This document shows positions 6,818-55,996 of a DNA stretch of 64,000 nt, piece after piece. This DNA is from Alphaproteobacteria bacterium (GTDB lineage: Bacteria > Pseudomonadota > Alphaproteobacteria > Paracaedibacterales > CAITNM01). The notes beneath the pieces are model-generated. The model was not told the origin of the DNA. It made no database searches and saw only the letters and a list, made by a program, of their open reading frames with translations. The DNA lies in the NCBI GenBank assembly GCA_947478955.1, contig CANJXJ010000001.1:53746-117745 (forward strand), written 5' to 3'. Numbering within the stretch: the stretch's first letter is position 1; each line of letters starts with the position of its first letter. A program made the position numbers and the translations under genes.

Positions 6818-6825
6818 GAGCTTAC

Positions 6826-9800: not shown

Positions 9801-9840
9801 TATGGGACAGCTCAACATTTAAAAATGTGGGGATATACAT
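6826..9840 (-). CDS. putA: Bifunctional proline dehydrogenase / 1-pyrroline-5-carboxylate dehydrogenase
   Basis: About 1004 aa. N-terminal PRODH barrel ([19 protein letters not shown]). C-terminal aldehyde dehydrogenase ([49 protein letters not shown]). The ORF-track start at 9852 is a TTG. The ATG at 9840 is preceded by GGAGA at a 5-nt spacing, so I prefer 9840. Confidence 0.92.
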
Positions 9841-9855
9841 GACTTTCTCCAAAAA

Positions 9856-9976: not shown

Positions 9977-10471
9977 TTAGCCGCGACGCATACGTTCAAT
10001 TTCTTTTTCCACAATACCTTCAACAATTTTTCGTAAATTCTGATCAAGCCAATTTTTAATTAAAGGAGTAGCTAATTGGTTTAACAATTCATCTGGCGAT
10101 AACGTTGGAGGGGCCGGAATTGATGCCACAATTTCGCTCTGCAAACGGTTAAAAGGATTATCAGAATCTGGCGTTTGAAAAGGATTTTGTGCCGGCTGAG
10201 AATTAGGATGCATAGAATTTTGCCCTACCTCCGATTTTTCAACTGGCGTCATTGGTGTAAATGAAGGCAAAGGCTGAGTTGCTGCCAAGCTAATCGTTTC
10301 AATCGGAAGCACTTCATCAGTTAACTGAATAACCTCAGGAGTGTAAAGCCTTTTTTCAGTCGCTAAAGAAGCTTCCCCTTTTGGAAAAGTCTGCCCTTCT
10401 GACACGTAACTACGGATGGACGCTAAAATATCGTCCATACTCATATCTTGTTTACTCGTTACTGAGGACAT
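9977..10471 (-). CDS. DUF2497 / PopZ-like pole-organizing protein
   Basis: N-terminal MSMDDILASIRSYVSE, a Pro-rich acidic middle, and C-terminal LLNQLATPLIKNWLDQNLRKIVEGIVEKEIERM. This matches the tripartite PopZ/DUF2497 layout of alphaproteobacteria. The ORF is open to 10507; I chose the start at MSSVTSKQ (10471) and it is uncertain. Confidence 0.6.
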   Translation of the reverse strand: MSSVTSKQDMSMDDILASIRSYVSEGQTFPKGEASLATEKRLYTPEVIQLTDEVLPIETISLAATQPLPSFTPMTPVEKSEVGQNSMHPNSQPAQNPFQTPDSDNPFNRLQSEIVASIPAPPTLSPDELLNQLATPLIKNWLDQNLRKIVEGIVEKEIERMRRG

Positions 10472-10543
10472 AAACCAAGCCTTATACCTTTTGTGACATT
10501 CTAGCAAAAATAAAGCTAGATAGAAAAGAAGAACGTTGCCTAA

Positions 10544-13258
10544 TTAATCAACGGTTGATAACGTTTCTTCCAAAATTTCTTCGCCTTCTTCAACTTTGCT
10601 AACCGAAACAACGTTTTCACCGCTTTCAATCCTGAAAATAATCACCCCTTGGGTACGGCGTCCGGTAATACGAACATCTGTAATTGGGCAACGAATCAGC
10701 TGACCACTTGTGGTAACCAGCATAATTTGATCCTGCTCTCTTACAGGGAATGCCGCGACCACACCGCCATTACGCACACTGGTAATAATGCTGTCAAATC
10801 CAACACCGCCGCGTTTAGTTGTGCGATATTCATAAGCAGAGCTGCGCTTACCAAAACCATTTTCTGTAACGGTTAGAATAAACTCTTCCATTGCTTGAAG
10901 TTCTTCAAAGCGCTCATTTGTTATGGTGATTGCTGCGACTTCTTCTTCTGCTTCAATCACTTCTGGCTCATCACTCACACCTTGACGTGCAGCTTTAGCC
11001 ATTTTCAAATATGCATTACGTTCTTCAATAGTCACTTTGCCAGGGTTGAGTATGGTTACGCTGATAACATAATCGTTTGGCTGCAATCTTATTCCACGCA
11101 CACCATTGGAATCACGTCCTGCAAATACACGAACGTTATCTGCCACATTAAAGCGATTACATAATCCCTTTTTGGTAAACAACATCACGTCGTCTTTTTC
11201 TGTGCATAACTTTACAGCAATTAATTCTTCACCAGCATCATCAAGCTTCATAGCACGTTTGCCATTGCTTGGAATGTTTGAAAAATCTTCCAACTTATTA
11301 CGGCGCACATTTCCTGTGTTGGTGGCAAACATTAAGAATACTTCTTGATCTTTGCGTTCAGTTTCTTCAGGCAAAATCAATACAGTCGAAATTGTTTCAT
11401 TAGCTGTTAATGGCAATAAGTTTACCATGGCTCGCCCACGTGATTGAGGCGTTGCCAATGGAAGCTCATAGGCTTTCATTTGGTACACTTTACCAAGCGT
11501 TGAGAAGAACAATACGTGGCTATGGGTATTGGCAATAATGATATCGCAAACTACATCTTCATCCTTGATGGTCATAGCGGAACGCCCTTTACCACCACGC
11601 CTTTGGGCACGATAGGTAGACAATGGAACACGCTTAATATAACCACTCAAACTTACGGTAATCACCATGTCTTCACGTTGGATTAAATCATCTAATTCAA
11701 GCTTGGTAACCGCATCTTCAATAACAGTTTTGCGTGGACTTGGAAAAATTTCTTTAATAGCATTTAATTCATCTTTTAAGATATTCAAAACACGTTGACG
11801 TGATCCTAAAATATCCAAATATTCTTGAATGTCCTTCGCGATATCATCTAAGTCTTTTAGAATTTTTTCACGCTCTAAACCAGTTAAGCGATGTAGTCGC
11901 AAATCTAAAATTGCATTCGCTTGCAATTCGCTTAAACGATATTGACCGTCAATGCTAACAACATCCGTATTGGCCTCAACAAGCTTAATATAACCAGCAA
12001 CTGATGAACCATCCCAAGTACGATTTAGTAAGTGCTCACGTGCTTCGTTGCGATCTTTTGATCCACGAATTAATTCAATAACAGGATCAAGGTTAGCAAC
12101 CGCCACAGAAAAACCAAGTAACAAATGGCTTTTTTCCCGTGCGCGATGCAACAGATACTTTGTTCTGCGAGTAATAACCTCTTCACGAAAATCAATAAAG
12201 TGCTGCAGAATGCTTTTAATGGAAAGCTGCAAAGGGCGACCATGGACAATAGCCAGCATGTTGTAGCCAAAGCTTACTTGCAGCTGACTATGGCGGTAAA
12301 GTTTATTAAGAATAACTTCCGCGTTAACGTCCTTCTTCAATTCAATGACGACACGCACGCCTTCACGGTTTGACTCATCTCGTAGATCAGAAATTCCTTC
12401 GATGGTTTTATCGCGAACAAGTTCAGCGATTTTTTCAATCATGCGAGATTTGTTAACCTGATAAGGCGTTTCATGGATGATAATCGCCTCACGGCTGCCT
12501 GAAATATTTTCAATAGTCGTCTTGGAACGAATTGTAATACTACCACGGCCTGTATTGAATGCTTCAATAATACCTTTTCGGCCTAACACAATAGCACCTG
12601 TTGGGAAATCTGGCCCCGGCACATATTGCATAATTTCTTCAATGGTAAGATTAGGGTCATCAACTAATGCACAAGTAGCATCAACAATTTCGCCTAAATT
12701 ATGGGTTGGAATATTGGTGGCCATACCAACCGCAATTCCGTTAGTGCCATTTACTAAAAGATTTGGAAATTTAGCTGGAAGAACAATTGGCTCAACAGTT
12801 GTGTCGTCGTAGTTGGCACGAAAATCTACAGTATCTTGGTCGATATCATCCAATAGCGAATGTGCAACCTTGCTTAAGCGCGCTTCTGTATAACGTTCTG
12901 CTGCTGGTGGATCTCCGTCCATTGAACCAAAGTTACCCTGACCATCAACCAATGGAACACGCAAGCTAAACCATTGCGCCATTCGAACCATTGCATCATA
13001 GATAGCAAGGTTGCCATGAGGGTGATACTTCGCCATCACATTACCAACTACGTTGGCAGATTTCTTATGTGGCCTGTTATATTCCAGACCAATTTCTTTC
13101 ATGGTATATAAAATACGGCGATGTACCGGCTTCAAACCATCACGAACATCTGGCAAAGCACGCGAAACAATTACGCTCATGGCATAATCAAGATACGATC
13201 TCTTCATTTCCTCTTCTAAGGAAACCGGCTTTACATCAGAAGTAGTTTGCGTGCTCAT
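10544..13258 (-). CDS. gyrA: DNA gyrase subunit A
   Basis: 904 aa. Blocks: [39 protein letters not shown] (QRDR), [24 protein letters not shown]-terminal beta-pinwheel repeats are present. Confidence 0.96.
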
Positions 13259-13490: not shown

Positions 13491-13562
13491 ATAATAAACA
13501 TTATCCGTTTCAAAAATAGATTTAGTTGGAGTTCTTTGTACCCCCAATTCGTAAAAAATCAA
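13359..13562 (-). pseudogene. Remnant of a glycosyltransferase C-terminus (duplicate of the 16354-16485 region)
   Basis: The C-terminal 42 aa of this 67-aa ORF (IPSTLLCVGLMVPGFLSFACGLILDSMSNCRRKNLRLHYLRN) mirror the C-terminus of the 301-aa GT2. Its N-terminus is unrelated and overlaps the end of the upstream gene. Confidence 0.7.
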
Positions 13563-14778
13563 CTTCCTTTTCTGAAGTTATTCTTGGGTCAGGTATCATG
13601 GCCAATCCTGCGTATTTGCAAATGACTTTTTCCAGATAGTCCTTGCTAACGTAATTTTTCAGTGATGCCTCTCTAGATACTATGTAATTAAGCATTCTAG
13701 CATAGATGACATCCCCCCCATGAAAACCATCGATAAACTCACCATCATTTGTGGATAATAATTGATTGGGGTCAGTAAAATCATACACTTTAACATCGTT
13801 TTTTTTTAATTTTCCGCGCAACTCAGCGATATATGAATAATCATATTGTTTCATTAATTTGTTGATTTCTGGAGCTAAAGGTGGAAAAAACAGGATCACC
13901 TTAACATTATTTTTTTGAAAAATTTCCAACAAATCTAAAAATTTTTGAAAATGTATTTCTGAAAATGAAGTGCCATGTGTAAACCTACCGGTTCCCTTTG
14001 CAACACTGTCTGCCGTTTCTTTAAAGGACACATCACCAAAGTTATTACTATGTCCAGTAACAAGGTCAGTATAATAACAAGACCCGTCGGCAGAAATGCC
14101 TGATTTCCTTAGTTTTCCACCAACTCCTATATGGTGTGTTTTTGACAAAGTAAATAATCTCATATAGTCAGAAATAGTAATTTTTTCATCTTTAATCCAT
14201 TTGAATGGTAAAAGAAGGTGAGCTGGATCTATCTTATTTACTGCTCTTTGAGAACATAAATCATATGCATCTGATTTTTGAAAATTCTCATTGAACCACC
14301 AAAAATCTATCCCTAATAGTACCACTTGTGGGCGATGAGCAGTCAACATTGCTGCAGTTGCATTTAGTGCTTCATGAATTGAAGTAGCAGTGTAGCCCAT
14401 ATTATAAAATGATTTGGAGAAGAATTGCTCGCGAAATTGTAGAACCCTTGATGATCCGAAGGAAATTATTTTTGGTTTTTTATATTTGTATGAGTATAGC
14501 TTCAACTCACTTATATCATTAAAAATAGATGACCCATAAATATTAAATTCACCCACTTTATTTTGAGATTCAAAGATTTGCTTGGTTGATAAAAATTCTC
14601 CGCAATTTCTAAGAAATAGGTAGTTTAAATAAATTGGGATAAGAAAAAAAATAAAAATAAAAATATACGCTTTTAAAAATTTTCTGTAATTATTTTTGGA
14701 TTTTAATTCAAAGCTCTCTTTTCCCTCTTTATTATCGAACAAGTGGGTAGGAAGAATTGCGGGTATTTCATTTTGCAT
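13522..14778 (-). CDS. DltD/SGNH-like O-acyltransferase partner protein (membrane-anchored, extracytoplasmic)
   Basis: N-terminal TM anchor (AYIFIFIFFLIPIYLNYLF). Ser motif ISFGSSRV. C-terminal D-x-x-H motif (FIDGFHGG), as in SGNH/DltD-type esterase-transferases. Lies immediately downstream of an MBOAT gene. The 418-aa size is similar to DltD. Confidence 0.5.
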   Translation of the reverse strand: MQNEIPAILPTHLFDNKEGKESFELKSKNNYRKFLKAYIFIFIFFLIPIYLNYLFLRNCGEFLSTKQIFESQNKVGEFNIYGSSIFNDISELKLYSYKYKKPKIISFGSSRVLQFREQFFSKSFYNMGYTATSIHEALNATAAMLTAHRPQVVLLGIDFWWFNENFQKSDAYDLCSQRAVNKIDPAHLLLPFKWIKDEKITISDYMRLFTLSKTHHIGVGGKLRKSGISADGSCYYTDLVTGHSNNFGDVSFKETADSVAKGTGRFTHGTSFSEIHFQKFLDLLEIFQKNNVKVILFFPPLAPEINKLMKQYDYSYIAELRGKLKKNDVKVYDFTDPNQLLSTNDGEFIDGFHGGDVIYARMLNYIVSREASLKNYVSKDYLEKVICKYAGLAMIPDPRITSEKEVDFLRIGGTKNSN

Positions 14779-20843: not shown

Positions 20844-22259
20844 ATGCAAACTTTCTTTGATTTTTTAAAGCACCACCAAGTAGAATTTGTTGATTTTAGG
20901 TTTACCGATTTACGCGGAACCTGGCACCACACCACCTATCCAACCAGTGCGGTTGATGATGATTTATGTACTCATGGTTTGCTTTTTGATGGTTCGTCAA
21001 TTGCAGGCTGGTGTGCGATTAATCAATCGGACATGCTTTTAAAGCCAGATTTTGGCCCCGAGCTGTGCAATGTTCGACTTGATCCTTTTTCATCTTATCC
21101 TACCGCGATTGTTATTTGTGATGTTTATCACCCCTTATCAGGCGAGCCATATGCTAAAGACCCGCGTCAAGTCGCTAAGAAATGTATAAAGTATCTCCAA
21201 AGCACTGGGCTAGCAGATCAAGCTTTTTTTGGTCCAGAGGCTGAGTTCTTTATTTTTGACGGGGTATCGTTTCAAGCTCGCCCTGAAAAAACATCTTATG
21301 AAATTTATTCCGATGAATTTCCCAGCCAAAATGGGGCAGCACTTGGGCACACTAGCCAAAACCATGGGTGTCGTCCTAGCCCTAAGGGAGGGTATTTCCC
21401 TGTACAGCCCCTAGATTCTGCTCAAGACATTCGTTCTGAAATGCTATTAAAAATGGCCGAAATGGGTTTAAGGGTTGAAAAACATCACCACGAAGTTGCC
21501 CCTGCTCAACATGAACTAGGTGTCGTTTATAATACCCTTGTTAAGGGTGCCGATGAATTACAAGTTTATAAATACGTAGTGCGAAATGTTGCCCGGTTGT
21601 ATGGTAAAACCGCTACTTTTATGCCAAAGCCAGTATTTGGTGATAATGGATCAGGTATGCATGTACACCAAAGCTTGTGGAAAAATTCTGAGCCTTTATT
21701 TAGTGGCAAAGAATATGCTGGGCTTTCTGACACCGCATTGTTTTATATTGGCGGCATTTTAAAGCATGCAAAAAGTTTGAATGCTTTTACCAATCCTACC
21801 ACCAATAGCTATAAACGACTTGTTCCAGGCTTTGAGGCTCCGGTGATTTGTGCTTACTCAGCACAAAATCGTTCTGCAGCTTGCCGTATTCCTCTTGTGC
21901 ACTCCCCTAAAGGTAAGCGCGTTGAAGTGCGTTTCCCAGATCCCTCTGCAAATCCTTATCTTGCTTTCTCAGCTATGTTACTGGCTGGAATTGATGGTAT
22001 ACAAAACCGTATTCATCCCGGCGATGCTCAAGATGTTGATTTGTTTGAACACAAAGAAATTGCCAAAAAGCTTCCAACTGTAAGCGGTTGTCTCAGGGAA
22101 TCATTACAGGCTCTAGAAAATGACCATGAGTACCTAACCAAATCAGGAGTGTTTTCTAAAGAACTTATTGATTCTCATTTGGAAATGAAATGGCAAGAAT
22201 TCTATCGGTTTGCCCATCATCCCCATCCCCTAGAGTTTGAGCTATATTACAATACGTAA
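20844..22259 (+). CDS. glnA: Glutamine synthetase type I
   Basis: 471 aa. Blocks: VEFVDFRFTDLRG, FDGSSIAGW, FGPEAEFFIFD, HHHEVAPAQHE, KPVFGDNGSGMHVHQSLW, NSYKRLVPGFEAPV, RVEVRFPDPSANPYL. Confidence 0.95.
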   Translation: MQTFFDFLKHHQVEFVDFRFTDLRGTWHHTTYPTSAVDDDLCTHGLLFDGSSIAGWCAINQSDMLLKPDFGPELCNVRLDPFSSYPTAIVICDVYHPLSGEPYAKDPRQVAKKCIKYLQSTGLADQAFFGPEAEFFIFDGVSFQARPEKTSYEIYSDEFPSQNGAALGHTSQNHGCRPSPKGGYFPVQPLDSAQDIRSEMLLKMAEMGLRVEKHHHEVAPAQHELGVVYNTLVKGADELQVYKYVVRNVARLYGKTATFMPKPVFGDNGSGMHVHQSLWKNSEPLFSGKEYAGLSDTALFYIGGILKHAKSLNAFTNPTTNSYKRLVPGFEAPVICAYSAQNRSAACRIPLVHSPKGKRVEVRFPDPSANPYLAFSAMLLAGIDGIQNRIHPGDAQDVDLFEHKEIAKKLPTVSGCLRESLQALENDHEYLTKSGVFSKELIDSHLEMKWQEFYRFAHHPHPLEFELYYNT

Positions 22260-26364: not shown

Positions 26365-27303
26365 ATGAAACGGATATTTCAAAGTATTTTTGTTATTGTT
26401 GTTTGCGCAATATGTTTTGCATATTATGCGTGTCATCCCACCCATTTACCAAGCCAAGATTCAACATATCAACAATTTTTGCGCTATGTTCATTATGTAT
26501 ATTTAAAAATAAAACATGATCCTTTTTGTAATTTGCATATTCCCAAAAGTAACATTCCAATTGATGTGGTGATTCCTGTTATTGAAAAAGACGCCCAAAC
26601 TTTGGGACTTACCATTGATTCGGTGCGCGGCAATATTTTGCAGCCTATTACCAATATCTATCTGATTGCACCAGAGTCAGCACTGCTACGACAAATTGCC
26701 CATGAGAAGAGCTGTATGTTTGTGTTAGAAGACACAGTGTTGCCCGTATTTTTAAACAAGACCAACCGCCGTGGGTGGATCAAGCAACAATATTTAAAAC
26801 TTAATGCTGACACCGTTGGGACATGCGAACATTTTCTGGTTATTGACGCCGACACTATTCTTATTCGTCCCCAAGTTTTTGTAATATCTGGCAAGGAAAT
26901 TTTAAATATTTTGCATGATTACTGGTTTAAGCGAAAGCAAATGGTGAAAATAGCGTTGGGCTTTGATAAGTTTCACAATGTTGATTTCACTAGTCACCAT
27001 ATGATGCTTTGTAAAACAAAATTAAGAGCCTTGAAACAACATTTACAAAATGTGCATGGGTTACCATGGCAAGATGCGCTTGATGGCTTAAATACTCCAG
27101 AAGGTAGCTTTTCCGAATATGAATTGTATGGCAATTTTGTAGCGCAACGTTTTGAACCTGAAATTGAGCTTGTGTTGGGAAGTAATATGCTTTTTCCCCG
27201 TAATGGCGTTACAAATATAGGTTATGCGCGGGAATATTTAAGCTGCAAATACAAAAGCATGACGATGCACAGCTTTTTAACCATTGAAGGGATGACGGGG
27301 TAA
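26365..27303 (+). CDS. Membrane-anchored putative nucleotide-sugar glycosyltransferase (DUF6492-like), paralog 1
   Basis: N-terminal TM. Blocks: IDVVIPVIEKD, KQQYLKLNADT, FLVIDADT (DxD-like), LPWQD. Clearly homologous to the next gene along its full length. Confidence 0.45.
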   Translation: MKRIFQSIFVIVVCAICFAYYACHPTHLPSQDSTYQQFLRYVHYVYLKIKHDPFCNLHIPKSNIPIDVVIPVIEKDAQTLGLTIDSVRGNILQPITNIYLIAPESALLRQIAHEKSCMFVLEDTVLPVFLNKTNRRGWIKQQYLKLNADTVGTCEHFLVIDADTILIRPQVFVISGKEILNILHDYWFKRKQMVKIALGFDKFHNVDFTSHHMMLCKTKLRALKQHLQNVHGLPWQDALDGLNTPEGSFSEYELYGNFVAQRFEPEIELVLGSNMLFPRNGVTNIGYAREYLSCKYKSMTMHSFLTIEGMTG

Positions 27304-27310
27304 CCACTTT

Positions 27311-28240
27311 ATGAAGCGCTTTTTGGCTTTGTTGTCACTAATAATTTCCTTATCAATTTTAAGTATGTGGGGCATCACAGCACCTGAAACATTGCCAAAA
27401 AAAGATACCACATGGCACGCTTACAAAAGAAAGCTTTTTATGAAGTTTTTGTCCCTTAAAAGAGATAGGTATTCTAATAACCATGTTCCTTTATGTAAGC
27501 ATAAAATTGATGTTGTCTTCTTGTGCATTGAAAAAGATCTACCAACCATTCGTCATGCGATTGATGCAGTAAAAGGGTTGGTGATGCATCCTATTAACAA
27601 GATTTATTTGATTTGTCCCAATTCTGAAAAGCTGCGAGCAGTTGCACAAGAAAAAGGCTGTGAGTTTGTAGAAGAAACTAAAATTATGCCTCATCTTGCG
27701 GGGGCTAGTCCAAGACATCTAAAGCAACAACTTATAAAACTTAATGCAGATACAATCACCACTGCCGATTACTTTTTGGTGATGGATGCCGATACAGTTT
27801 TGCTGCAAACCCAAATATTTCTTCGAGAAGGTAAGGCTGTGTTAAATGCCTTTGGTGAGTATGTGTTAGGCAGCAAGGTTACGGTTGAATCAGCATTGAA
27901 ACTTGAAAAGTATTACAATCTTGATTTTAATAGCCATCATATGTTTTTTGAAAAATCAAAACTTAAAGCCATGAAAGATAGATTAGAGAAATTACACGGG
28001 CTTCCATGGCAGGATGTTTTAAATACCTCAGAAATTGCAAGTGAGGCCTTTTCAGGATATGAAATGTATGCGAACTTTATACTAGCATTTTTCCCTAATG
28101 AAGCAGTGATTGTACATGGTAAAAACTCACAGATGCCTGCAGATCGAATTTCTGGAATCGAGTGGCAACGCGGGTTCTTGTCAAAAGGTTACAAAAGCCT
28201 TTCATTTCATCACTCTATGACAACCGAGAACTATAGCTAA
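27311..28240 (+). CDS. Membrane-anchored putative nucleotide-sugar glycosyltransferase (DUF6492-like), paralog 2
   Basis: N-terminal TM. Blocks: IDVVFLCIEKD, KQQLIKLNADT, FLVMDADT, HGLPWQD. Collinear with paralog 1, with roughly one third of residues identical by eye. Confidence 0.45.
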   Translation: MKRFLALLSLIISLSILSMWGITAPETLPKKDTTWHAYKRKLFMKFLSLKRDRYSNNHVPLCKHKIDVVFLCIEKDLPTIRHAIDAVKGLVMHPINKIYLICPNSEKLRAVAQEKGCEFVEETKIMPHLAGASPRHLKQQLIKLNADTITTADYFLVMDADTVLLQTQIFLREGKAVLNAFGEYVLGSKVTVESALKLEKYYNLDFNSHHMFFEKSKLKAMKDRLEKLHGLPWQDVLNTSEIASEAFSGYEMYANFILAFFPNEAVIVHGKNSQMPADRISGIEWQRGFLSKGYKSLSFHHSMTTENYS

Positions 28241-29332: not shown

Positions 29333-30015
29333 TGTTAATTTCTCTAAAGGCTGCAGGTTATACCCTTGAGTCACCCCCTAAAACCTTATTGCATGATATT
29401 AATTTTGATGTTTTGCCTAATAGTGTTACAACGATTATTGGCCCAAATGGTGCAGGCAAAACTACTCTTGTGCGGTTGCTTTTAGGGCTAATTCAACCGA
29501 CAGCAGGAACGGTTACCCGGCAAAGACACATAACAATGGGATATGTCCCGCAAAAACTTCACGCTAATCGGTTTATGCCCATGACGGTAAGTACATTTCT
29601 AAGCTTATGCGGGGACCAAAAACTTGAGCATCCGTTTGATATTTCTCATTTAATGACCAGATCAATTCATGCATTGTCAGGGGGGGAATTACAAAAAGTA
29701 CTTTTCAATGCAGCTGTGCTGAAAAAGCCTGATTTATTAATTCTTGATGAGCCGACCCAAGGGATTGATGCGGACGGACAATCGGCATTTTACCGAAAAT
29801 TAATCGAGCTGAAGAACAAATACAACATGGCGATTGTGCTGATTTCCCATGATCTCCATTTTGTATTTGATTGCACTGATCATGTGATTTGTTTAAACCA
29901 CCATGTGTGTTGCCAAGGTACACCTGAAAAAGTGCGGCAAATTCAAGAAGTGCAACAGCTGTTTCCGGGCTTCGCACCCTATCAACATCATCATGATCAC
30001 CACCACCATGATTGA
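29332..30015 (+). CDS. znuC: Zinc ABC transporter ATP-binding protein
   Basis: Walker A GPNGAGKTT, signature LSGGELQKV, Walker B LLILDEP, His-rich tail HHHDHHHHD. The start overlaps the mraY stop (TAATG). Confidence 0.75.
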   Translation: MLISLKAAGYTLESPPKTLLHDINFDVLPNSVTTIIGPNGAGKTTLVRLLLGLIQPTAGTVTRQRHITMGYVPQKLHANRFMPMTVSTFLSLCGDQKLEHPFDISHLMTRSIHALSGGELQKVLFNAAVLKKPDLLILDEPTQGIDADGQSAFYRKLIELKNKYNMAIVLISHDLHFVFDCTDHVICLNHHVCCQGTPEKVRQIQEVQQLFPGFAPYQHHHDHHHHD

Positions 30016-30781
30016 TTCATTCGTCCTTTTTATTGTGGTATCAGCCCTGTTGGCGAGCCTCATTACCGCACCTCTTGGATGCATAGGCCTTTGGAATGGT
30101 TTGGCATTTTTTGGGGATACCTTGGCCCATGCATCGTTGCTAGGGGTATGTTTTAGTGTACTTTTACAAGTGCCCTATGCCTGTGGGGCGGTTGTCGTAT
30201 GCTTGGCGATAGCCTATTTCATTGCTCATAAATCCTCAAAGCAAAGCGATGTGTCGTTAGCGGTGATTTCCTATAGTTGCCTTTCGTTTAGTATGTTAGT
30301 GATATCGTTATTTCCAAAGGCTAATCTTGATCCAAATACGTTGTTGTTCGGTGATTTGCTAAGCACAAGCTCATCTGATGTTTTACTTCTTGCAATAGCC
30401 CTTGCAGTGCTATGGGGGGGAATTGCAAAATATTGGTCAGCGATTTTAATGACTAGCTTTGATGCCGACCTTGCACAAATCCAAGGATTTCCATCAAGAG
30501 CGATACGCCTGATGGTACTTTTTGCCTATGCAATCATTATAGGGATTGTAATGAAAATGCTGGGAGCATTGTTTGCACCAGCCCTTACAATTATTCCAGC
30601 TGCGGCTGCAAGATACCGTTCAAAAACTCCTTCTCAGATGATGACATCAGCTATAGTGATTAGTTGTTTTTCAAGCATTATAGGTATTGGCATAAGTTTG
30701 TATTTTGATCTACCTACGGGACCATCAATCATTTGCGTATCGGCAATTACAATGGCGCTTATAAAAATAAGCGCCAAGTAA
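30008..30781 (+). CDS. znuB: Zinc ABC transporter permease
   Basis: ABC-3 family permease (FFGDTLAHASLLG, LLFGDLLS). The ATG at 30008 overlaps the znuC stop (ATGATTGA). The ORF-track start at 29903 is an unlikely extension inside znuC. Confidence 0.72.
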   Translation: MIDSFVLFIVVSALLASLITAPLGCIGLWNGLAFFGDTLAHASLLGVCFSVLLQVPYACGAVVVCLAIAYFIAHKSSKQSDVSLAVISYSCLSFSMLVISLFPKANLDPNTLLFGDLLSTSSSDVLLLAIALAVLWGGIAKYWSAILMTSFDADLAQIQGFPSRAIRLMVLFAYAIIIGIVMKMLGALFAPALTIIPAAAARYRSKTPSQMMTSAIVISCFSSIIGIGISLYFDLPTGPSIICVSAITMALIKISAK

Positions 30782-30822: not shown

Positions 30823-32472
30823 TTACATATACATATGGCGTATACTTTCTGGCAATTCTGCCGTTGGTTCTTTGTTATCTTTGACGAATTGATCAATAGC
30901 AGGTGCTATGTCCTTTAAGGTTACAGTTAAAATTTTGTCTCCCTCAGCTGTCATTAGGTCCATTGCTTGGCTATAAAATGGTTGCAAAGCAGCACTAAGA
31001 ATTGTAGTTAAGCTTCGCACTCCAAGATTTATATCTATGCTTATCTTAGCGAGGCGCCTTAAAGCAGCATCTTTAATAGCAAGATCGACCCCATAAAAAA
31101 GTTTAAATTCATTTTGAATTTTTTTGAAAGGTGATCCTTCACGGCTAATAACATTCATCATGGTCTCTATCGTGTGTCCTTTAAAAGGAATAATTGTAGA
31201 AAAACGTCCAACGAATTCAGGTTCAAAGCCCGCGCTTATAATATCTTGGTGGGTGCGAGCCGTAGTTGTACGTTCGTCGTCTGTGTCATGGCGCCCTTTC
31301 AATTTAGAAAATGCCCCTGTGCCAATTACCCACCAATTTTTAAGGCTATATGTCCGTCCTTTTAAGGAAACATTTCCGCCATCTAGAGGCGTTAATAATA
31401 AACGCTGGACGGCTTTACCAAAATTTCTTGATTCCTCATCTGCGGATGATCCAAGCTTATCCAGTTCATCTAGAGCAACAATGGCAGAAATGGGATTGCC
31501 GTGTTCTTCACAAAAAGCAGCGACAGCTTCGCTAAAATTTTGCCCTTTAAAACCTTCATCAGTTAGGCTTCGTGCGTTAACATGCAGAATGGGGATATCC
31601 CTCAAGAAGAGTCCTAATTGCTTAAGACTTTCGCTCTTCCCGCAGCCGGTGGGCCCTGTTAATATGCAATGCGGCGGGCTACTAGCTGCTGCCATGCCAC
31701 TTTCTAGTAATAGTTTATTACATACAAACCGGTGTGTTAACAAACTGAGTATTCTTAGTGCTTCGTCTTGTCCCGCAATAAATCTGTCCAAATGGGCGAT
31801 GATAACTGGTGCTGGAATAGAACGTTTTGCAATTGGATCAGAATGGTCTATTACGGTTCCCAAACTGGCTAAGGTATGGTTGTCATCTAGATCTAGCGGT
31901 GGTGGTAGTGGCCTTCTCTCACTTCTAAAAGGTGGCCTGGTCCGTGATGCTGAACCAAGCATAATAGTAAATGAAGTTGGGGGGAGCACAGATGCCGCTA
32001 AGTTTGATAATGGAGGCATCACAGGCATGGGTGGTAAACTTAAGGATGAAACAGGAAAAGTTATAATTGAAGACAAAGTAGGGGTAATTGCAAGGTCAGG
32101 AAATGATGGATCTACTATATTAGCAATCGCAAGTCTTACCATTTTTTTTCTGTTGCCTGGGAGCGATTGCCCCAGAATTCTTTCACGTATACTTTCTAGT
32201 GTTGGTGCGTCTGTTAAGGATTTTTGGAAGGTCAAAATAGCATCTCTCCACGGGCCAATTTTTCCATTACTTGCGCTTAAGAAATTTAGGGTTTGCATTA
32301 GCTTGTTAAAGGGATCTACTGCAGATAAAGAAGCAGAACTGGCTCTTGGTGGTCGCAAGGAATCATCCGTCGGCACAGCAGTTGGGGGCATGGCTCCGTC
32401 ATCCATTGCTATAATGGCTGATGACACAAAAACTAGATTAGTGATTATTATTTTAAGGCGGGTAGTCAGCAT
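30823..32472 (-). CDS. ClpX-family AAA+ ATPase with a non-canonical hydrophobic, Pro-rich N-terminal half
   Basis: The C-terminal ~325 aa are collinear with ClpX. Blocks: LDRFIAGQDEAL, Walker A GPTGCGKS, LTDEGFKGQNF (pore-loop position), Walker B ALDELDKL, EPEFVGRF, LGVRSL. N-terminal aa 1-220 have a hydrophobic start (IIITNLVFVSSAIIA) and Pro/Ser/Leu-rich sequence with no Cys cluster. Confidence 0.7.
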   Translation of the reverse strand: MLTTRLKIIITNLVFVSSAIIAMDDGAMPPTAVPTDDSLRPPRASSASLSAVDPFNKLMQTLNFLSASNGKIGPWRDAILTFQKSLTDAPTLESIRERILGQSLPGNRKKMVRLAIANIVDPSFPDLAITPTLSSIITFPVSSLSLPPMPVMPPLSNLAASVLPPTSFTIMLGSASRTRPPFRSERRPLPPPLDLDDNHTLASLGTVIDHSDPIAKRSIPAPVIIAHLDRFIAGQDEALRILSLLTHRFVCNKLLLESGMAAASSPPHCILTGPTGCGKSESLKQLGLFLRDIPILHVNARSLTDEGFKGQNFSEAVAAFCEEHGNPISAIVALDELDKLGSSADEESRNFGKAVQRLLLTPLDGGNVSLKGRTYSLKNWWVIGTGAFSKLKGRHDTDDERTTTARTHQDIISAGFEPEFVGRFSTIIPFKGHTIETMMNVISREGSPFKKIQNEFKLFYGVDLAIKDAALRRLAKISIDINLGVRSLTTILSAALQPFYSQAMDLMTAEGDKILTVTLKDIAPAIDQFVKDNKEPTAELPESIRHMYM

Positions 32473-32722
32473 AAAGCCTCCTCAAAATAAAGGGGCTTTA
32501 GCAACACTTTTTGAGATGACTGCTTAGTACTGTTCGATAACAGATTTACCAACCATTGCTAAGAACTCTCTAAAAAAGAGAAGTCTTAAAGTCACTTTAT
32601 TTAAAATGTTTTTTACAAGTGTATTTTATAATAAAATTATTTAATGAATCATTAAAACAACAATAAATACGTTATTTTTATAATTTTTATTCTTTCAAGG
32701 GTGCTTGTTTTTAATGATGAAA

Positions 32723-32742
32723 CCCGCGGTCTGTACCGCGGG
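32723..32742 (-). terminator. Candidate intrinsic terminator downstream of the MFS gene
   Basis: Hairpin CCCGCGG-tctgta-CCGCGGG (7-bp GC stem), 52 nt past the stop. On the minus strand it is followed by TTTCATCATT, a short U tract. Confidence 0.45.
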
Positions 32743-39665: not shown

Positions 39666-40457
39666 ATGACCAGGGATTTTATCTTTTTAAGTGCTTTTCA
39701 AGGCATTGCTGAGTTTCTGCCAATCAGTTCGAATGGCCATCTTGTTGTATTGGAAAAACTCTTTGGCATTACAACTAATGGACTTGAATCCCATGTGGCC
39801 CTACATTTTGGGTCATTGCTGGCCCTGCTTATTTATTTCTTTAAAGACATCTGCTTAATGATTTTTGGCCTTTGGGTTTATGACATCAAAGGATTGAAAA
39901 AACATCCAGGCAAAAGATATCGCGATTTAGCTTGGACACTTTTACTTTCCTCCTTGCCCGCTATGGTTATCGGGTTTTTTATTAAGAAATTTTACGGCTC
40001 AATATCTGAAAGTTTTGTTATTATAGGGACTGCAAGTATCGTATTTGGAATTTTGTTAATCGTAGCAGATTCTAATCCTGTAAAAGATCGCTATGTGACC
40101 TATAAAAGAGGATTTTGTATTGGCATCGCGCAATGTCTTGCCTTTATACCAGGGGCTAGTCGTTCTGGTATGTGTTTAACTGTAGCCAGATTTTTTGGAT
40201 TAAACAGAGTAGAAGCTACTCGATTTTCATTTTTGATGGCTATTCCAATCATATTAGGTGCTTCAACTTTGGTAGCCGTTGACGCGCCCAATCTTGGGGT
40301 ATTATTTACATCCTCACAACTGACTCTTATCGGAATAACAACCGGCTTGGGAATCTTAACGATTCAAACTTTGCTATGGTTTCTGGGAAGATTTAGCTTC
40401 TGCTTTTTTGGTATTTACAGAATCATTTTTGGGATCTTCTTGTTGCTGTTTTTGTAG
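39666..40457 (+). CDS. uppP: Undecaprenyl-diphosphate phosphatase
   Basis: BacA family. Blocks: FQGIAEFLPISSNGHL, PGASRSG, RFSFLMAIP. The C-terminal YRIIFG helix is present. The start abuts the acnA stop. Confidence 0.85.
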   Translation: MTRDFIFLSAFQGIAEFLPISSNGHLVVLEKLFGITTNGLESHVALHFGSLLALLIYFFKDICLMIFGLWVYDIKGLKKHPGKRYRDLAWTLLLSSLPAMVIGFFIKKFYGSISESFVIIGTASIVFGILLIVADSNPVKDRYVTYKRGFCIGIAQCLAFIPGASRSGMCLTVARFFGLNRVEATRFSFLMAIPIILGASTLVAVDAPNLGVLFTSSQLTLIGITTGLGILTIQTLLWFLGRFSFCFFGIYRIIFGIFLLLFL

Positions 40458-41645
40458 TTCATCAAACAATATAGTAATGCTAATTCGCCTGTTTTCAGGT
40501 GCCGTAGGGTCCTTTTTATTAAATGGATCTCTGTCGGAACGGCCATTAACTTCTATAAATCGATTGCTTTTTATATTGCTATCTTCCAAAATTCTACGGG
40601 TAGCATGAGCCCTATCAGATGATAACTCCCAATTTCCATATCCTTTTTTATTGTAGGGTTTTGAGTCAGTATGTCCTGTAATATTAATTTTGTTAGGAAG
40701 ATTCACTAGAATTTTACCTAGGGCTTTTATAATACCTTCTGTAAATTTAACAGGTATTGGGCTGCCACTTTTAAACATTTCATGCGCAGGACTATCAACA
40801 ATTTGAATTCTAATCCCTTCATCTGCTAATTCAACGATAAGATTGTGCTTAAACTTCTTCATTTCTTGGGGTGAATTAAAAGCAGCTTTGATATTATTAT
40901 CGATTTTCTCAATGATTTCTTTTTGTCGTAGTTCTTCTGCTAACACCTTTTCTGAGTCTGTACTTTTCTCGGCTTTTTCAATAGCTGCAAGTTGTTCCTC
41001 TAATTCTTTTTTCGTTAGTTTGGAATTTTTTATTTCGGCATTTTCTACTTGTTTTTCCTGGCTTTTTTTATCATCTTCTTTCATATTTTTTGTTTCAACG
41101 CTAACTTTTCCATGATCCTTGTCATCCATTTTTTTTAGGTCAGCAACATCTTTATCTTCAGGTATTGCGCCCTGCCGTTTTATATGATGTTCAATGTTTG
41201 GTTTATTACTTTCATTTGTATATGTAGTAATCTTGCGAGTGTTATCTTTGTCTCCCATTTGGCTCGGTGCAAAATCATCAGGATATAATTGGATTTTGGG
41301 AGCAGCTTTTTCTTTTAATTTTTGAACGTTTGAATTATAAGTATTTGATTTATTGTTATTATCATTTTCAATTTCCTGTTCGCTATTTCCATTTTGCGGG
41401 GCCGACGTTTCTCCGTCCATCATTCCTGTGCCAGTACTTGCAGATTCCATGTTGATGATGCTGGAGGTAAAGTACTCTGCGATTCCTTTTTTTGTCTCGT
41501 CGGTTGCAACGTTGATAAGCCACATTAGTAAAAAAAAGGCCATCATGGCGGTAACGAAATCAGCATAAGCAATTTTCCACGCCCCCCCATGGGTACGGTG
41601 ATGGGTTTTTTTGTACCTTTTGATAATTATAGGTTGCTCTGACAT
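40374..41645 (-). CDS. motB: Flagellar motor stator protein MotB with an extended charged linker
   Basis: N-terminal GGAWKIAYADFVTAMMAFFLLMWL (MotB TM/plug). C-terminal OmpA-like domain (ITGHTDSKPY, NWELSSDRAHATRRIL, NRRISI). About 185 aa of Lys/Glu/Asp/Asn-rich sequence lies between them. Confidence 0.85.
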   Translation of the reverse strand: MSEQPIIIKRYKKTHHRTHGGAWKIAYADFVTAMMAFFLLMWLINVATDETKKGIAEYFTSSIINMESASTGTGMMDGETSAPQNGNSEQEIENDNNNKSNTYNSNVQKLKEKAAPKIQLYPDDFAPSQMGDKDNTRKITTYTNESNKPNIEHHIKRQGAIPEDKDVADLKKMDDKDHGKVSVETKNMKEDDKKSQEKQVENAEIKNSKLTKKELEEQLAAIEKAEKSTDSEKVLAEELRQKEIIEKIDNNIKAAFNSPQEMKKFKHNLIVELADEGIRIQIVDSPAHEMFKSGSPIPVKFTEGIIKALGKILVNLPNKINITGHTDSKPYNKKGYGNWELSSDRAHATRRILEDSNIKSNRFIEVNGRSDRDPFNKKDPTAPENRRISITILFDELQKQQQEDPKNDSVNTKKAEAKSSQKP

Positions 41646-41648
41646 AGT

Positions 41649-42503
41649 TTACTTTATTTCTTGGGTAGCCTTTTCAAGCTCACTGAAAGAAGGTCTTAAG
41701 AATGGATCAATATTTTTTCTAGCAAACTCTACTGCAATAATGGGAGCCTGACCATTTAAGTAAGCTAGTAATCCTGCGCGAATTACCATTAAATATCCTT
41801 TATCTGCTGCATGAGCTTCTTTTAGAGAATTAGCTACAGGCCCAACGAATCCATATGAAACTAGCACTCCTAAAAATGTTCCAACAAGCGCACCGCCAAT
41901 TAACCGTCCCAAGATTGCGGGCGGTTGATCAATAGATCCCATTGTATGAATAACTCCCAAAACAGCCGCAACAATACCAAGTGCTGGTGTCGCATCTGCT
42001 AGATTTTGTATGGCCCCAGAGATATGGATATTTTGGTTCTCCAATTCATCGAGTTCTTGGTCAATAAGGGTTTCGATTTGATAAGGATTTTCACACCCCA
42101 TGGTCATTATTCGTATGTAGTCACACAAAAAATTAACTGCTCTTATGTTTTTTATAAAGCGAGGAAACTGTTGAAATATAGGGCTTTCGTCAGGGTTATC
42201 TATATGGCTTTCTAAAGACAGCATACCTTTACGGCGAGCAAGTTTAAAAATAGTAAATTGAAGCAATAAGGAATCAAGATAATCTTCTTGAGTGTATGTT
42301 GCACCTTTTCGAGCGATTGTTAATGCATTTCCGATATGACTAAGGGTTTTTCCGGAATTGGAAATAATAAATGAACCAACAGCTGACCCTAAGATAATAA
42401 TAAATTCAGCAGGCTGATATAAGACAGCAAGGTGTCCACCGACTATTAGGTATCCTAATAGAACGCTGGCAAGTACTGTAGCAACACCAATCCAAAAACG
42501 CAC
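41649..42503 (-). CDS. motA: Flagellar motor stator protein MotA
   Basis: 284 aa with 4 TM segments. Conserved C-terminal half: PALGIVAAVLGVIHTMG, GGALVGTFLGVL.SYGF. GTG start. Lies 3 nt upstream of motB. Confidence 0.85.
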   Translation of the reverse strand: MRFWIGVATVLASVLLGYLIVGGHLAVLYQPAEFIIILGSAVGSFIISNSGKTLSHIGNALTIARKGATYTQEDYLDSLLLQFTIFKLARRKGMLSLESHIDNPDESPIFQQFPRFIKNIRAVNFLCDYIRIMTMGCENPYQIETLIDQELDELENQNIHISGAIQNLADATPALGIVAAVLGVIHTMGSIDQPPAILGRLIGGALVGTFLGVLVSYGFVGPVANSLKEAHAADKGYLMVIRAGLLAYLNGQAPIIAVEFARKNIDPFLRPSFSELEKATQEIK

Positions 42504-51582: not shown

Positions 51583-53517
51583 CTACTTACCCATTTCTGC
51601 AATACGGTCCATCATGCGCCAATACATATTCATAAAAGAAAAATACAAATCCTGACTTTTTGAAATTTCCATTGAACGTATTGCTATCTCTTGTTCATCC
51701 ATTCCATATTTTTGAGAAAAGAGTTCTTTTTGCTGTTTATATGCTTCTGTTTGTGCTTCTTTATCTGCTTGTAAGGTGCTAACTTTGTTTGCAACCTCTT
51801 TAACTAAACCTGAAGAAAAAGCTTCTAGGGTTTGGGAAACTGTTCCCCCGGTGGGGGTTACAAAAGTTGTTTTCGTTCGGGTGAATAAATCACTGAGAGC
51901 GCGACCAATAACTGGATCACCTGACACGGCTTGCGCTGCCCCCAGGGCATCATCTCGTAATTTATCGACTGAAAAATAATCAGGATTATCTAACATTGAG
52001 CTATTAACGCTAAGGTTAGAAGCTAAGCCTGTAATTGCGCCGCCACGATAAAATGTCGCAGGCGCTGTAATCACATCATTTAAATGAAAAAATTCACTAA
52101 ACCCATAAGCGGTAGACCCCGGAATAGAAATTGTAGGTGACCCTGAACCAGAAACACTTCCCAAGCTTATGCCGCAACTAGGGTCAGCTGTAGTAATTTT
52201 TAAAGAATTTGTTGCCGGGTCTACGCTAGCTGTAACATGCCCTGTTAATGTTACATTGTTGTTAATCAAACTACATAACTGGGTAACAGTCGTTGCCGTA
52301 CTAATGTCAATATCTGCACTATAAGTAGCTAAATTAGTAGAAGTATTAATGACAGCAACTTTTAGGGTACCTGCAGACGTTATCGCCAAAGCCCCTGTTA
52401 AACTCGCGCCGCCAATATAACCTGAGCTGCCTTGTAATGTTGTACGAGGCTTAATTGCTGAGCTTAAGTTATGAACGGCGTTAAATGAATCACGCAGTCC
52501 TGCAGCGTAAGCGTCCAGCTCTTGGGCAAATAAAGCGGAATCACTTTGTAAAAATTGCATGATTCCTGATATGGAGCCTCCTACCGTATCAGAAAAATCA
52601 TTGGATACATCAAAAACGAAAGCTTCTTCTCTTCTATAATAGTAATTATTTCCATCCAGTGCAGGGGGCACTGTCGCTGCACCTGCTTCTGCATTTGTTG
52701 GGTCCACAGAAATTGATTTCAATGTGATGGTTCCTGCACCAAAAGTTTGAGAGGCGTCAATTTGCGTGGGAGGAGTGTAAATAAATTCGGAATATATGTC
52801 TTTTTGAACAAGGACACGGCCTTTTGGAGTGTAGACCAAAAAATCGCTATTGGTGTCTTCTACTTTAATTTCAATGTATTCTGATAAAGTATCTAACTTA
52901 GCACGGCGCTGCTGCTTGTAAGAAATATTAGAAGATGAAGTAGCGCCAGGCGCATCCATACTGGCGTTAATGGTGGCGATATCTTTTAGTAATTCATTGA
53001 TTTTTGGAAGTTGGCTTGTTAATTCTTTTGAAGCAGCATCGCGCAAATTTTGTAATTTATCAGCGACACTTCTTATTTGACGAGCATGATCTTTTATCGC
53101 TTCCATTACCGCTTTTTTATTAGCTGAATTATCACCACCTTGGCTACATAAGGTATTTATGGTTGTGACAATTTTATTTCCACTGGTAATAAAGGCATTG
53201 CTTCCACCCATTTGCCCAAAGGCATTTTGATATTCTCCTATATATTTTTCAAGCGAAGTCATTTTTTCTGCTTGTGCGGCAAGGGTACGTAATTGATTTT
53301 CTACATCAATGTCGGTGACTTCTTGAAAGTCTCCTTCTGTAATACCAATGGCATTCCCATTAGCATCATAGTAAAGTGAAGATTCTTGAACAACGCGGGT
53401 AAAGCCTGGCTTATCCATGGCAACCATATCAGCTTCAAGGCGTTTCATTTCATGAGACTTTTGTTTTAAGGCGGCTAAAACTAACCCAACACCTGAACCC
53501 CAAATTTCACTTACCAT
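51583..53517 (-). CDS. flgK: Flagellar hook-associated protein 1
   Basis: 644 aa. N-terminal rod/hook-type helix (GLVLAALKQKSHEMKRLEADMVAMDKPGFTR). Large Ser/Thr/Gly-rich central domain. C-terminal DEQEIAIRSMEISKSQDLYFSFMNMYWRMMDRI (compare FlgK DEEmanL..yQ.ay.A). Confidence 0.72.
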   Translation of the reverse strand: MVSEIWGSGVGLVLAALKQKSHEMKRLEADMVAMDKPGFTRVVQESSLYYDANGNAIGITEGDFQEVTDIDVENQLRTLAAQAEKMTSLEKYIGEYQNAFGQMGGSNAFITSGNKIVTTINTLCSQGGDNSANKKAVMEAIKDHARQIRSVADKLQNLRDAASKELTSQLPKINELLKDIATINASMDAPGATSSSNISYKQQRRAKLDTLSEYIEIKVEDTNSDFLVYTPKGRVLVQKDIYSEFIYTPPTQIDASQTFGAGTITLKSISVDPTNAEAGAATVPPALDGNNYYYRREEAFVFDVSNDFSDTVGGSISGIMQFLQSDSALFAQELDAYAAGLRDSFNAVHNLSSAIKPRTTLQGSSGYIGGASLTGALAITSAGTLKVAVINTSTNLATYSADIDISTATTVTQLCSLINNNVTLTGHVTASVDPATNSLKITTADPSCGISLGSVSGSGSPTISIPGSTAYGFSEFFHLNDVITAPATFYRGGAITGLASNLSVNSSMLDNPDYFSVDKLRDDALGAAQAVSGDPVIGRALSDLFTRTKTTFVTPTGGTVSQTLEAFSSGLVKEVANKVSTLQADKEAQTEAYKQQKELFSQKYGMDEQEIAIRSMEISKSQDLYFSFMNMYWRMMDRIAEMGK

Positions 53518-53526
53518 GCATTTCTC

Positions 53527-53943
53527 CTATACCATTTGCTGCACACCCAAACTTGGGGCATAGGAGTTTTCAAATAACTTACCAGAAGCAGTGTAGAATG
53601 CTGGTTTGCTTTTCATTTTATTAAAATAGATCTCCATGAGCTTCTTGTTGCCGCGCTTAGAGATATCTAATAGCTTAAGATTTTGTTGGATCGTGTCTGT
53701 AACAGATTTCAATAACTGGCTGATGTTTTGTCGCTGTGATTTCTCAAGTTGTTCCCAATAGGTTGGATCAAGTAATTGGTTAGCGCAGTGTTGGTTACTT
53801 TCAAACAGTTCTGCTTTTTTTTGCAGCAATGAATCTAGTTGAGCCAGATGAGTATCTTTTAAGTGTTGCTCTTCTATTTGCATAAGCACCAACAGGCTTT
53901 CTGCAGTTTTACAAAAATCATCATATACCTTAGAGAAGGACAT
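53527..53943 (-). CDS. FlgN-like flagellar export chaperone (tentative)
   Basis: 138-aa all-helical protein with heptad Leu/Gln/Glu pattern, located between the rod-binding protein gene and flgK. The call rests on position and composition only. Confidence 0.4.
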   Translation of the reverse strand: MSFSKVYDDFCKTAESLLVLMQIEEQHLKDTHLAQLDSLLQKKAELFESNQHCANQLLDPTYWEQLEKSQRQNISQLLKSVTDTIQQNLKLLDISKRGNKKLMEIYFNKMKSKPAFYTASGKLFENSYAPSLGVQQMV

Positions 53944-54304: not shown

Positions 54305-54307
54305 TAT

Positions 54308-55969: not shown

Positions 55970-55996
55970 AACAACCCTTTCTGTCATTATGGTTTA

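Follow-up and report, generated by a model that had tools for sequence, protein, structure and literature searches.

The minus-strand gene at positions 30823–32472 of a 64,000-nucleotide stretch of alphaproteobacterial DNA (contig CANJXJ010000001.1, order Paracaedibacterales; subsequently referred to as the window) codes for a 549 amino acid (aa) AAA+ ATPase of the ClpX/HslU clade with a predicted export signal. Its assignment as a coding sequence rests on the open reading frame (ORF), on a family of about 47 protein clusters and on codon substitution patterns. An earlier note on this DNA, made from the letters alone, had read it as a ClpX-family ATPase with an altered N-terminus, and the ORF lies exactly where that note had placed it. 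To judge from the sequence, both interaction modules of ClpX have been exchanged in this family, and relative to ClpX the protein has gained a signal peptide of the cleavable type, a four-helix N-domain, the flexible linker that carries it, and a 14-residue tail. The best explanation, which we advance tentatively and rate somewhat short of even, is a lineage-specific, Sec-exported unfoldase that derives from the ClpX/HslU clade, does not depend on ClpP and acts outside the bacterial cytoplasm.

Residues 211–535 (30868–31842; like the other parts of the gene, on the minus strand) make up an AAA+ module with large and small subdomains and the ClpX/HslU fold, as judged from the sequence, an AlphaFold2 (AF2) model and a Foldseek search. 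Pfam matches were to AAA_2 (residues 270–426, 1.7e-14) and to AAA, and the first 215 residues gave no Pfam match even at E <= 1. The AF2 model, built from a family alignment of 32 sequences, is confident over residues 210–535. Foldseek matched it to ClpX chains (E ~1e-17, TM-score 0.7–0.77), with HslU just behind, and the top sequence match in the PDB was E. coli ClpX (5.7e-20, in two stretches). Among NCBIfam models ClpX came first and HslU second, both about 280–300 bits below their equivalog cut-offs: NF003745 scored 77.3 bits against 359 and TIGR00382 59.6 against 370.75 for ClpX, and TIGR00390 60.6 against 362.45 for HslU. The earlier assignment to ClpX therefore holds for the ClpX/HslU clade of AAA+ proteins but not for the ClpX family proper.

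The catalytic motifs quoted in the earlier note are all present where it had placed them. Walker A (GPTGCGKS, 31633–31656) is identical in 45 of 46 family proteins, and Walker B (DELDK, 31456–31470) follows the pattern [DE]E[LIVM]DK in all of them. The alignment further shows the arginine-finger box EPEFVGRF (31201–31224) and the sensor-2 arginine box LGVRSL (31009–31026). The pore-1 loop reads GFKG (31543–31554) instead of the GYVG of ClpX and HslU, as had been noticed before, and all 46 proteins carry G[FY]KG at this place. Walker A and Walker B are only about 55 residues apart, so that both the alignment and the AF2 model lack an I-domain insertion. Torsin gave no Pfam match at E <= 1. None of the catalytic elements has been lost (Walker A, Walker B, the arginine finger, sensor-2 and an aromatic residue in the pore-1 loop), and the motor appears intact; by these motifs the module should be ATPase-competent, and it does not look like a ClpX orthologue. 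The protein would thus work like an unfoldase of the ClpX/HslU type yet belong to neither family, as it fails their defining tests.

The interaction parts of ClpX are gone. The first Cys of the protein is residue 251, so there can be no C4 zinc finger, as the earlier note had said of the Cys4 cluster, and zf-C4_ClpX gave no Pfam match at E <= 1. When the family was aligned by MAFFT with E. coli ClpX and with ClpX-like proteins that have an IGF loop, about 20 residues proved to be missing between SKLKG and RHDTD (31279–31308), among them the IGF loop by which ClpX docks on ClpP; the region of the RKH loop is shorter as well. The E. coli sequence in this comparison was taken from the PDB-match alignment, except for residues 219–267, which were supplied separately. 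The absence of an IGF tripeptide, on which the earlier note had also remarked, is accounted for by this deletion. A hidden IGF-like tripeptide was considered and rejected: the IGT of WWVIGTGAF aligns with the ClpX core strand ICGGAF and not with the loop, and its pairing with the IGF loop by phmmer is a mis-registration. With zinc-finger domain, RKH loop and IGF loop all lost, docking on ClpP in the manner of ClpX is impossible. A canonical clpX or clpP was not found within the 64-kb window; the ORFs at 13522–14778 and 10544–13258, looked at as candidates, are a DUF1574-like gene and gyrA.

The N-terminus points to export. Residues 1–22 (32407–32472), MLTTRLKIIITNLVFVSSAIIA, look like a Sec-type signal peptide with a K/R n-region, an h-region and a small residue, and cleavage is predicted after IIA. 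A heuristic scan recovered the same pattern in all 30 aligned members with a complete N-terminus: one or two K/R residues, a hydrophobic core of 15 residues, a small residue (almost always A, S or G) and an acidic mature N-terminus. The n-region, the h-region and the small residues at –3 and –1 agree with Sec export and cleavage by signal peptidase I. There is no Cys close to the predicted cleavage site, hence no lipobox Cys. The core is the sole hydrophobic segment of the whole protein, and because K/R residues precede it and acidic residues follow it, the bulk of the protein is predicted to face outward (N-in). The hydrophobic leader described in the earlier note thus proved to be a family-wide, probable Sec-type signal, which implies either export or an outward-facing anchor. 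In the window, the N-termini of the YkuD protein and the TolC-like protein (periplasmic and outer-membrane, respectively) begin in a similar way. The mature N-terminus that follows (residues 23–50, 32323–32406) is acidic and Pro-rich, with low values of the predicted local distance difference test (pLDDT) and a recurrent P-x-[DE]-D-x-L motif (alignment A1, columns ~60–120). This motif was shared by no other protein of the window.

Between the signal and the motor, the earlier note had seen about 200 residues of Pro/Ser/Leu-rich sequence. That description fits residues ~126–210, which are predicted to be disordered, but residues 51–125 (32098–32322) are modeled as a folded four-helix domain (pLDDT 84–93 in the full AF2 model, 88 when modeled alone), the first hairpin of which is TPR-like. 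In the domain alignment A2, W75 is invariant and F55, L58 and I79 are nearly so, and one member, P0007, carries the domain twice. We found neither a Pfam family that recurs across the members nor a significant PDB fold match by Foldseek (best E 1.7, TM-score 0.34). The top hit, PafE/Bpa of M. tuberculosis, was accordingly not used. A profile of the domain, run against 1.84 billion representative proteins, returned only the AAA family, fragments of it and weak repeat matches to TPR proteins, in which the repeat GKWxEAIAxYEQSL resembles GKIxPWKxAIxxFQxSL of the N-domain in several stretches; no other architecture with this domain turned up. Within the databases searched, the N-domain is thus restricted to the family and matches no known domain. 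The linker (residues 126–210, 31843–32097; pLDDT 30–46) has 15 Pro, 13 Leu and 12 Ser among its 85 residues and bears the motif R-P-x-[FL]-[RS]-S-E-[RK]-[RK] (alignment A1, columns 401–425). It is present in most members, and the shortest ones do without it.

Following the motor we noticed a conserved C-terminal tail (residues 536–549, 30826–30867), PTAELPESIRHMYM, that appears flexible (pLDDT ~58) and ends in M-Y-M (30826–30834). Of the 43 complete members, 42 follow the pattern [ML]-[YWF]-x-COOH, and in 37 the aromatic residue is Tyr; three have M-Y-S at the end, and a divergent branch of the family ends in GMY[LIM]. M-Y-M satisfies the definition of the HbYX motif, in which a hydrophobic residue, Tyr and one arbitrary residue form the extreme C-terminus and insert into the pockets of the 20S proteasome alpha-ring (PMC6568242). 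About 0.72% of bacterial proteins have such an end by chance (PMC11475706). The actinobacterial proteasome activators end in GQYL (PMC4254994). By its position and conservation the tail looks like a docking element, and it fits the HbYX docking motif of proteasome activators, which makes their partner a candidate only. The earlier proposal of a ClpP-independent protein is borne out by the missing IGF loop, but independence of ClpP need not mean independence of any partner. The near-invariant hydrophobic-Tyr-x tail had escaped that note.

HslU, too, docks by its C-terminus, and it does so without an HbYX motif (PMC11475706). The family could also be read as a cytoplasmic, membrane-tethered counterpart of HslU that serves HslV or Anbu, with an N-out anchor and a tail that activates HslV. 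The shared clade speaks for this, as does the way in which HslU uses its C-terminal tail to dock on and activate HslV, an aromatic residue of the tail playing the decisive part (PMC4106860, PMC6429459). However, that residue in E. coli is F441 of 443, two positions before the end (PMC4106860), while in our family the aromatic is penultimate and not at the HslU position. The I-domain is missing, the score with the HslU model is 60.6 bits against 362.45, and the flanking charges put the bulk of the protein outside in all members. Moreover, an h-region of 15 residues followed by a small residue resembles a signal peptide rather than a stable transmembrane helix. Taken together, a partnership with HslV seems quite improbable to us.

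A search covering 5.8 billion proteins delimited the family sharply. Close matches comprised 44 clusters at E < 1e-60 (about 47 with all members counted), and after a gap the next matches, at ~1e-19, belonged to another ClpX-like family, mostly from Verrucomicrobiota, with GYVG and IGF. The profile search dropped from 326 to 111 bits and found no more distant member in between. Where carriers are named, their loci are labeled Candidatus (Ca.) Finniella inopinata, Ca. Finniella sp. or Ca. Odyssella sp.; the others are unclassified metagenome-assembled genomes (MAGs) of Alphaproteobacteria or Pseudomonadota. The family proteins are currently annotated as 'ClpX' or 'AAA family ATPase'; these are misannotations in the first case and a generic label in the second. 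Our literature search returned no paper on the family, on a bacterial HbYX effector or on a periplasmic AAA+ protein.

To see how the regions of the gene are constrained, we compared codons region by region with relatives that are 76–87% identical. The ratio of nonsynonymous to synonymous substitution rates (dN/dS) was 0.11–0.18 over the whole coding sequence against close relatives, 0.15–0.30 in the signal peptide, 0.17–0.26 in the N-domain, 0.19–0.36 in the linker, which is thus under purifying selection as well, and 0.08–0.13 in the AAA+ motor; everywhere outside the motor it stayed below 0.5. This purifying selection shows that the 5' half, whose translation the earlier note had left in doubt, is translated, and the start Met of the window protein is shared by its family homologues in the alignment. 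In the C-terminal tail dN was 0 with a dS of 0.5–1.2, which makes the tail the most constrained part of the protein.

The gene nevertheless evolves much faster than its neighbors: between genomes whose flanking genes are 82–94% identical, the AAA protein is only 49–54% identical. The gene order uvrD, two DUF6492 genes, mraY, znuC, znuB and AAA is kept in the Finniella-type loci and their closest relatives (L001–L008 and L011–L013, some of which lack the DUF6492 pair or are cut short). The gene on the upstream side varies, being MFS (major facilitator superfamily) in the window and L010, uvrC in the Finniella loci, and UPF0102 plus BON in L011–L013. More divergent genomes carry tandem paralogues, two in L009 (10001–13376) and three in L010 (10001–15224). 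Their N-terminal parts are 17–33% identical, their motor and tail 47–78%, and every one of them has a signal peptide and a hydrophobic-Tyr-x end. If a machine keeps one partner while its targets change, its motor and dock are expected to stay constant and its front end to diversify, as is the case here. Fast protein divergence combined with tandem paralogues that differ in their N-terminal parts is effector-like, and we infer from this that the family may be host-directed. The L010 array adjoins a gene for an 800-aa Sel1/TPR protein with a YoeB-toxin-like C-terminus, and the L009 array adjoins genes for a 1575-aa NUDIX-containing protein and a protein of the endonuclease/exonuclease/phosphatase family; these neighbors are possible further host-interaction genes.

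The gene is also preceded by a leader of its own. A structured element of about 135 nt (32473–32608, minus strand), identified by comparison and folding, contains the 13-bp palindrome TAAAGTGACTTTA (32587–32599) and is more conserved than the coding sequence, being near-identical where the proteins are only about 50% identical. It was found in L001–L008 and L011–L013, and a diverged form stands before each of the paralogues in L009 and L010. The predicted fold has two hairpins within an outer stem, with three compensatory pairs in L007 and a minimum free energy of –41.1 kcal/mol (z = –3.1). A strong Shine-Dalgarno sequence, GAGGAGG (32477–32483), ends 4 nt before the ATG and is buried in the predicted GCCCCUU/GAGG-GGC hairpin, so that translation appears to be gated by the leader. 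A covariance model of the leader matched only before family genes in 291 kb. Known RNAs were considered as an identity for it and rejected, no Rfam match being better than E 0.25. Since the leader is conserved, structured and, in those 291 kb, confined to family genes, expression is probably under dedicated operator or leader control.

Could the gene simply be a ClpX paralogue that is neutral or in decay and serves no particular function? Its faster evolution compared with the neighbors would fit, and in one MAG (L008) the family gene (10001–11587) is split into two ORFs, 10001–11071 and 11240–11587, either as a frameshifted pseudogene or through an assembly error. However, the catalytic motifs are invariant in 45–46 of 46 proteins, the dN/dS values of motor and flanking regions given above are those of a constrained gene, the adjacency to znuB is kept across the clade, and a conserved leader is dedicated to the gene. 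Decay is already contradicted by these constraint data and is scarcely credible.

A different role was suggested by L013, in which a type VI secretion system (T6SS) block, tssK-tssL-tssM-tssA (902–8551), lies 1.4 kb upstream of the family gene. The T6SS of Holosporineae is non-standard, and tssH is absent from the list of its components in Ca. Bodocaedibacter (PMC8163844). The family might thus be a surrogate for the missing ClpV/TssH and recycle the contracted sheath. Linkage to a T6SS was seen in L013 only, 1 of 13 loci searched, and not in the window, so that linkage was rejected as a feature of the family. ClpV is cytoplasmic, but the AAA protein has an export signal; the TssH (ClpV) model of NCBIfam scores a weak 28 bits against 885, and the window protein has a single AAA+ module. 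In Francisella the same gap is filled by ClpB (PMC5481754). We regard a ClpV surrogate as very improbable.

What an exported unfoldase could do depends on where these bacteria live. The earlier note had proposed a host-directed effector on condition that the organism is an endosymbiont, and the named relatives, Ca. Finniella and Ca. Odyssella, do belong to such a group (PMC11909080). The Paracaedibacteraceae are cytoplasmic endosymbionts of amoebae, cercozoans and ciliates, and every described member is cytoplasmic (PMC11909080). In the mechanism that we favor, the precursor would pass the inner membrane via Sec, and the mature protein would then form a hexameric ring outside the bacterial cytoplasm. 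Its ATP would come from the host, as the named relatives are described from the cytoplasm of their hosts and an ATP:ADP antiporter is encoded in a related genome. The variable N-domains would catch substrates or adaptors, which the pore loops would thread, and the invariant C-terminal tails would plug the ring onto a ring-shaped partner. In the preferred version of this mechanism, the protein would be released into the host cytosol, insert its HbYX-type tails into the pockets in the alpha-ring of the host 20S proteasome and pass host proteins on to it for degradation. The 20S proteasome is absent from bacteria other than Actinobacteria (PMC11475706), which makes that of the host the obvious HbYX receptor. 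The clade has very diverse hosts, yet the pockets of their 20S are conserved. The result would be a chimeric protease of bacterial ATPase and eukaryotic 20S core, free of ubiquitin, with host targets picked by fast-diversifying N-domains. If it exists, it could free amino acids or remove host defense factors. Docking on the host 20S is the least secure step of the mechanism and in itself rather unlikely, and the complete chimera is to be viewed as doubtful.

Several points weigh against the exported unfoldase that we favor, and against its host-directed version in particular. To our knowledge, docking of ClpX-clade rings on 20S proteasomes has no precedent. The F/Y-K pore loop is unusual, so competence for threading is an assumption. 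The end [ML]-Y-[MLI] also suits class-II PDZ ligands and is loosely HslU-like, and the tail therefore does not identify the partner. Finally, no known route moves a Sec-exported, folded hexamer across the outer membrane (PMC8163844); the secretion systems reported in these lineages are only Sec and the non-standard T6SS (PMC8163844, PMC11909080). Against this missing route we set the periplasmic proteins of Holospora, which find their way into the host (PMC11909080). A secreted protein resembling ClpX is missing from the supplements of the Ca. Bodocaedibacter paper.

The same evidence can be read as a periplasmic AAA+ machine. Here the protein would be exported by Sec, either soluble or anchored by its uncleaved signal, draw host ATP through porins and bind a periplasmic partner with its tails, which might be a protease of the HtrA/DegP or Prc/CtpA kind (through its PDZ domains) or a channel in the outer membrane. 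This would give either a protease of the periplasm driven by ATP or a motor for moving proteins outwards. Of all compartments, the periplasm alone is supported by the sequence itself, through the signal peptide; no exit route of the type II secretion system kind is reported (PMC8163844), the ATP:ADP antiporter of the related genome implies periplasmic ATP, and the tail suits a PDZ ligand of the form hydrophobic-x-hydrophobic-COOH. A eukaryotic precedent exists in HSP101 of PTEX (the translocon for exported proteins in Plasmodium), described as an exported AAA+ protein that drives translocation over an outer barrier (PMC7355975, PMC6550532). On the other hand, the M-Y-S end of three members would make a poor class-II PDZ ligand, and the fast rate and the tandem paralogues with diverging N-domains look more host-facing. 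No periplasmic AAA+ protein is known, and the phrase 'periplasmic AAA' did not occur in the literature searched. A machine confined to the periplasm seems unlikely to us.

The surroundings of the gene are unremarkable in composition. It lies convergent to znuB and on the same strand as the MFS gene, behind a spacer of 321 bp with 31% GC, in agreement with the AT-rich spacer of the earlier description. The claim that the gene is more GC-rich than its surroundings did not hold: its GC content is 0.422 against 0.428 and 0.424 in the flanking genes, and that at third codon positions (GC3) is 0.318 against a window mean of 0.319. Horizontal transfer or a compositional island was rejected on the strength of GC3 at the window mean, neighbor-like GC and the clade-wide adjacency to znuB. 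A terminator-like GC hairpin read from the sequence after the MFS gene (32723–32742, minus strand) sets that gene apart from the AAA gene. A 10-bp palindromic hairpin within the 3' end of the znuB ORF (30753–30776), 47 bp past the AAA stop codon, is terminator-like on both strands. At its other end, the znuB ORF as listed shares 113 nt (29903–30015) with the end of znuC. ZnuB of the relatives is called as 257–262 aa, so an internal codon is probably the true start. Opposite the AAA gene runs an antisense ORF of 467 aa (31124–32527, plus strand), with shorter counterparts in related loci; it looks like a shadow ORF held open by the codon bias of the AAA gene, without independent support.

Further afield in the window, a tandem pair of DUF6492 paralogues (26365–28240, plus strand), both with N-termini that resemble signal peptides, separates uvrD from mraY; the pair is kept in some related loci and absent from L001, L002 and L005. 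A cluster of amino-acid metabolism genes comprises a large NAD-specific glutamate dehydrogenase of 1510 aa (1517–6049, plus strand), a bifunctional PutA (6826–9852, minus strand) and a glutamine synthetase, GlnA (20844–22259, plus strand), and from these the organism appears geared to the use and catabolism of amino acids, a lifestyle that we count in favor of the exported unfoldase. This endosymbiont-type genome also has the flagellar genes motA, motB, flgK and flgI (40374–42503 and 51583–55987, minus strand); at 559 aa FlgI is unusually long, and it is matched in two stretches, which suggests an insertion. Towards the end of the window, a tRNA gene (58614–58684) is followed by a tyrosine integrase (58853–60070) and a DUF3631 protein (61850–63991), and the region 58614–63991 is probably the edge of an integrated mobile element.

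Among known systems, ClpX (E. coli, PDB 6WRF/3HWS) is the closest match of the family by sequence and fold. Both have a single AAA+ ring module without I-domain, an EFxGR arginine finger, a GxRxL sensor-2 and an aromatic pore-1 loop. Unlike ClpX, the family lacks the C4 N-domain and the IGF loop, has G[FY]KG in place of GYVG and a shortened RKH region, and is extended by a signal peptide, a new N-domain with its linker and a tail conserved at the C-terminus. With HslU it shares the AAA+ clade, a nearly equal fold score and the absence of IGF loops; HslU docks on HslV via its extreme C-terminal tail, where an aromatic is decisive (PMC4106860), but the family has no I-domain, a penultimate aromatic of the HbYX type and an export signal.

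The terminal hydrophobic-Tyr-x motif is otherwise known from PAN, Rpt2/3/5, Cdc48/VAT, Mpa, Bpa, Cpa and PA200/Blm10. As in the HbYX and GQYL ATPase activators, a flexible tail follows the ATPase ring, and the GMY[LIM] branch of the family comes near the actinobacterial GQYL. In contrast to these activators, the motor belongs to the ClpX/HslU clade and not to the classical AAA proteins, and OB or coiled-coil N-domains are missing. The only 20S that the family could reach would be that of the host, as bacteria other than Actinobacteria have none (PMC11475706).

Closest in this respect are two eukaryotic cases, Plasmodium HSP101 and the torsins, AAA+ proteins made with a secretory signal that work outside the cytosol, as the family probably does. 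HSP101 is a two-ring ClpB-type protein, and the torsins are lumenal proteins of the endoplasmic reticulum without an arginine finger. We know of no bacterial counterpart among AAA+ proteins that bear signal peptides. HSP101 drives the export of parasite proteins over the vacuolar membrane (PMC7355975, PMC6550532). The nearest proteins outside the family are the ClpX-like proteins of Verrucomicrobiota (P0045–P0120, ~530 aa), whose matches over the AAA+ half have E ~1e-19 to 1e-26. Like the family, these proteins are without the C4 domain, but they differ in having GYVG, an IGF loop and a C-terminal extension, and in lacking a signal peptide and a hydrophobic-Tyr-x end.

A protein that joins an export signal to a new N-domain and an HbYX-type tail, and that has lost the IGF loop, has not been described before. 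AAA+ unfoldases are thought to act only where the cell makes ATP, and we know of none past the inner membrane of Gram-negative bacteria. A family with an intact ClpX-type motor and a conserved export signal breaks this rule, and an exported motor of this kind makes sense only for bacteria bathed in host ATP. It also offers a concrete candidate for host interaction in the Holosporineae, whose effectors are essentially unknown. If the partner is the host 20S, this would be a new way for a symbiont to hijack eukaryotic proteolysis; if the protein is periplasmic and fueled by host ATP, it would be the first periplasmic AAA+ machine. Compared with ClpX, the swap of the IGF loops for a tail of the proteasome-activator type would show how easily unfoldase rings can be re-plugged onto peptidases.

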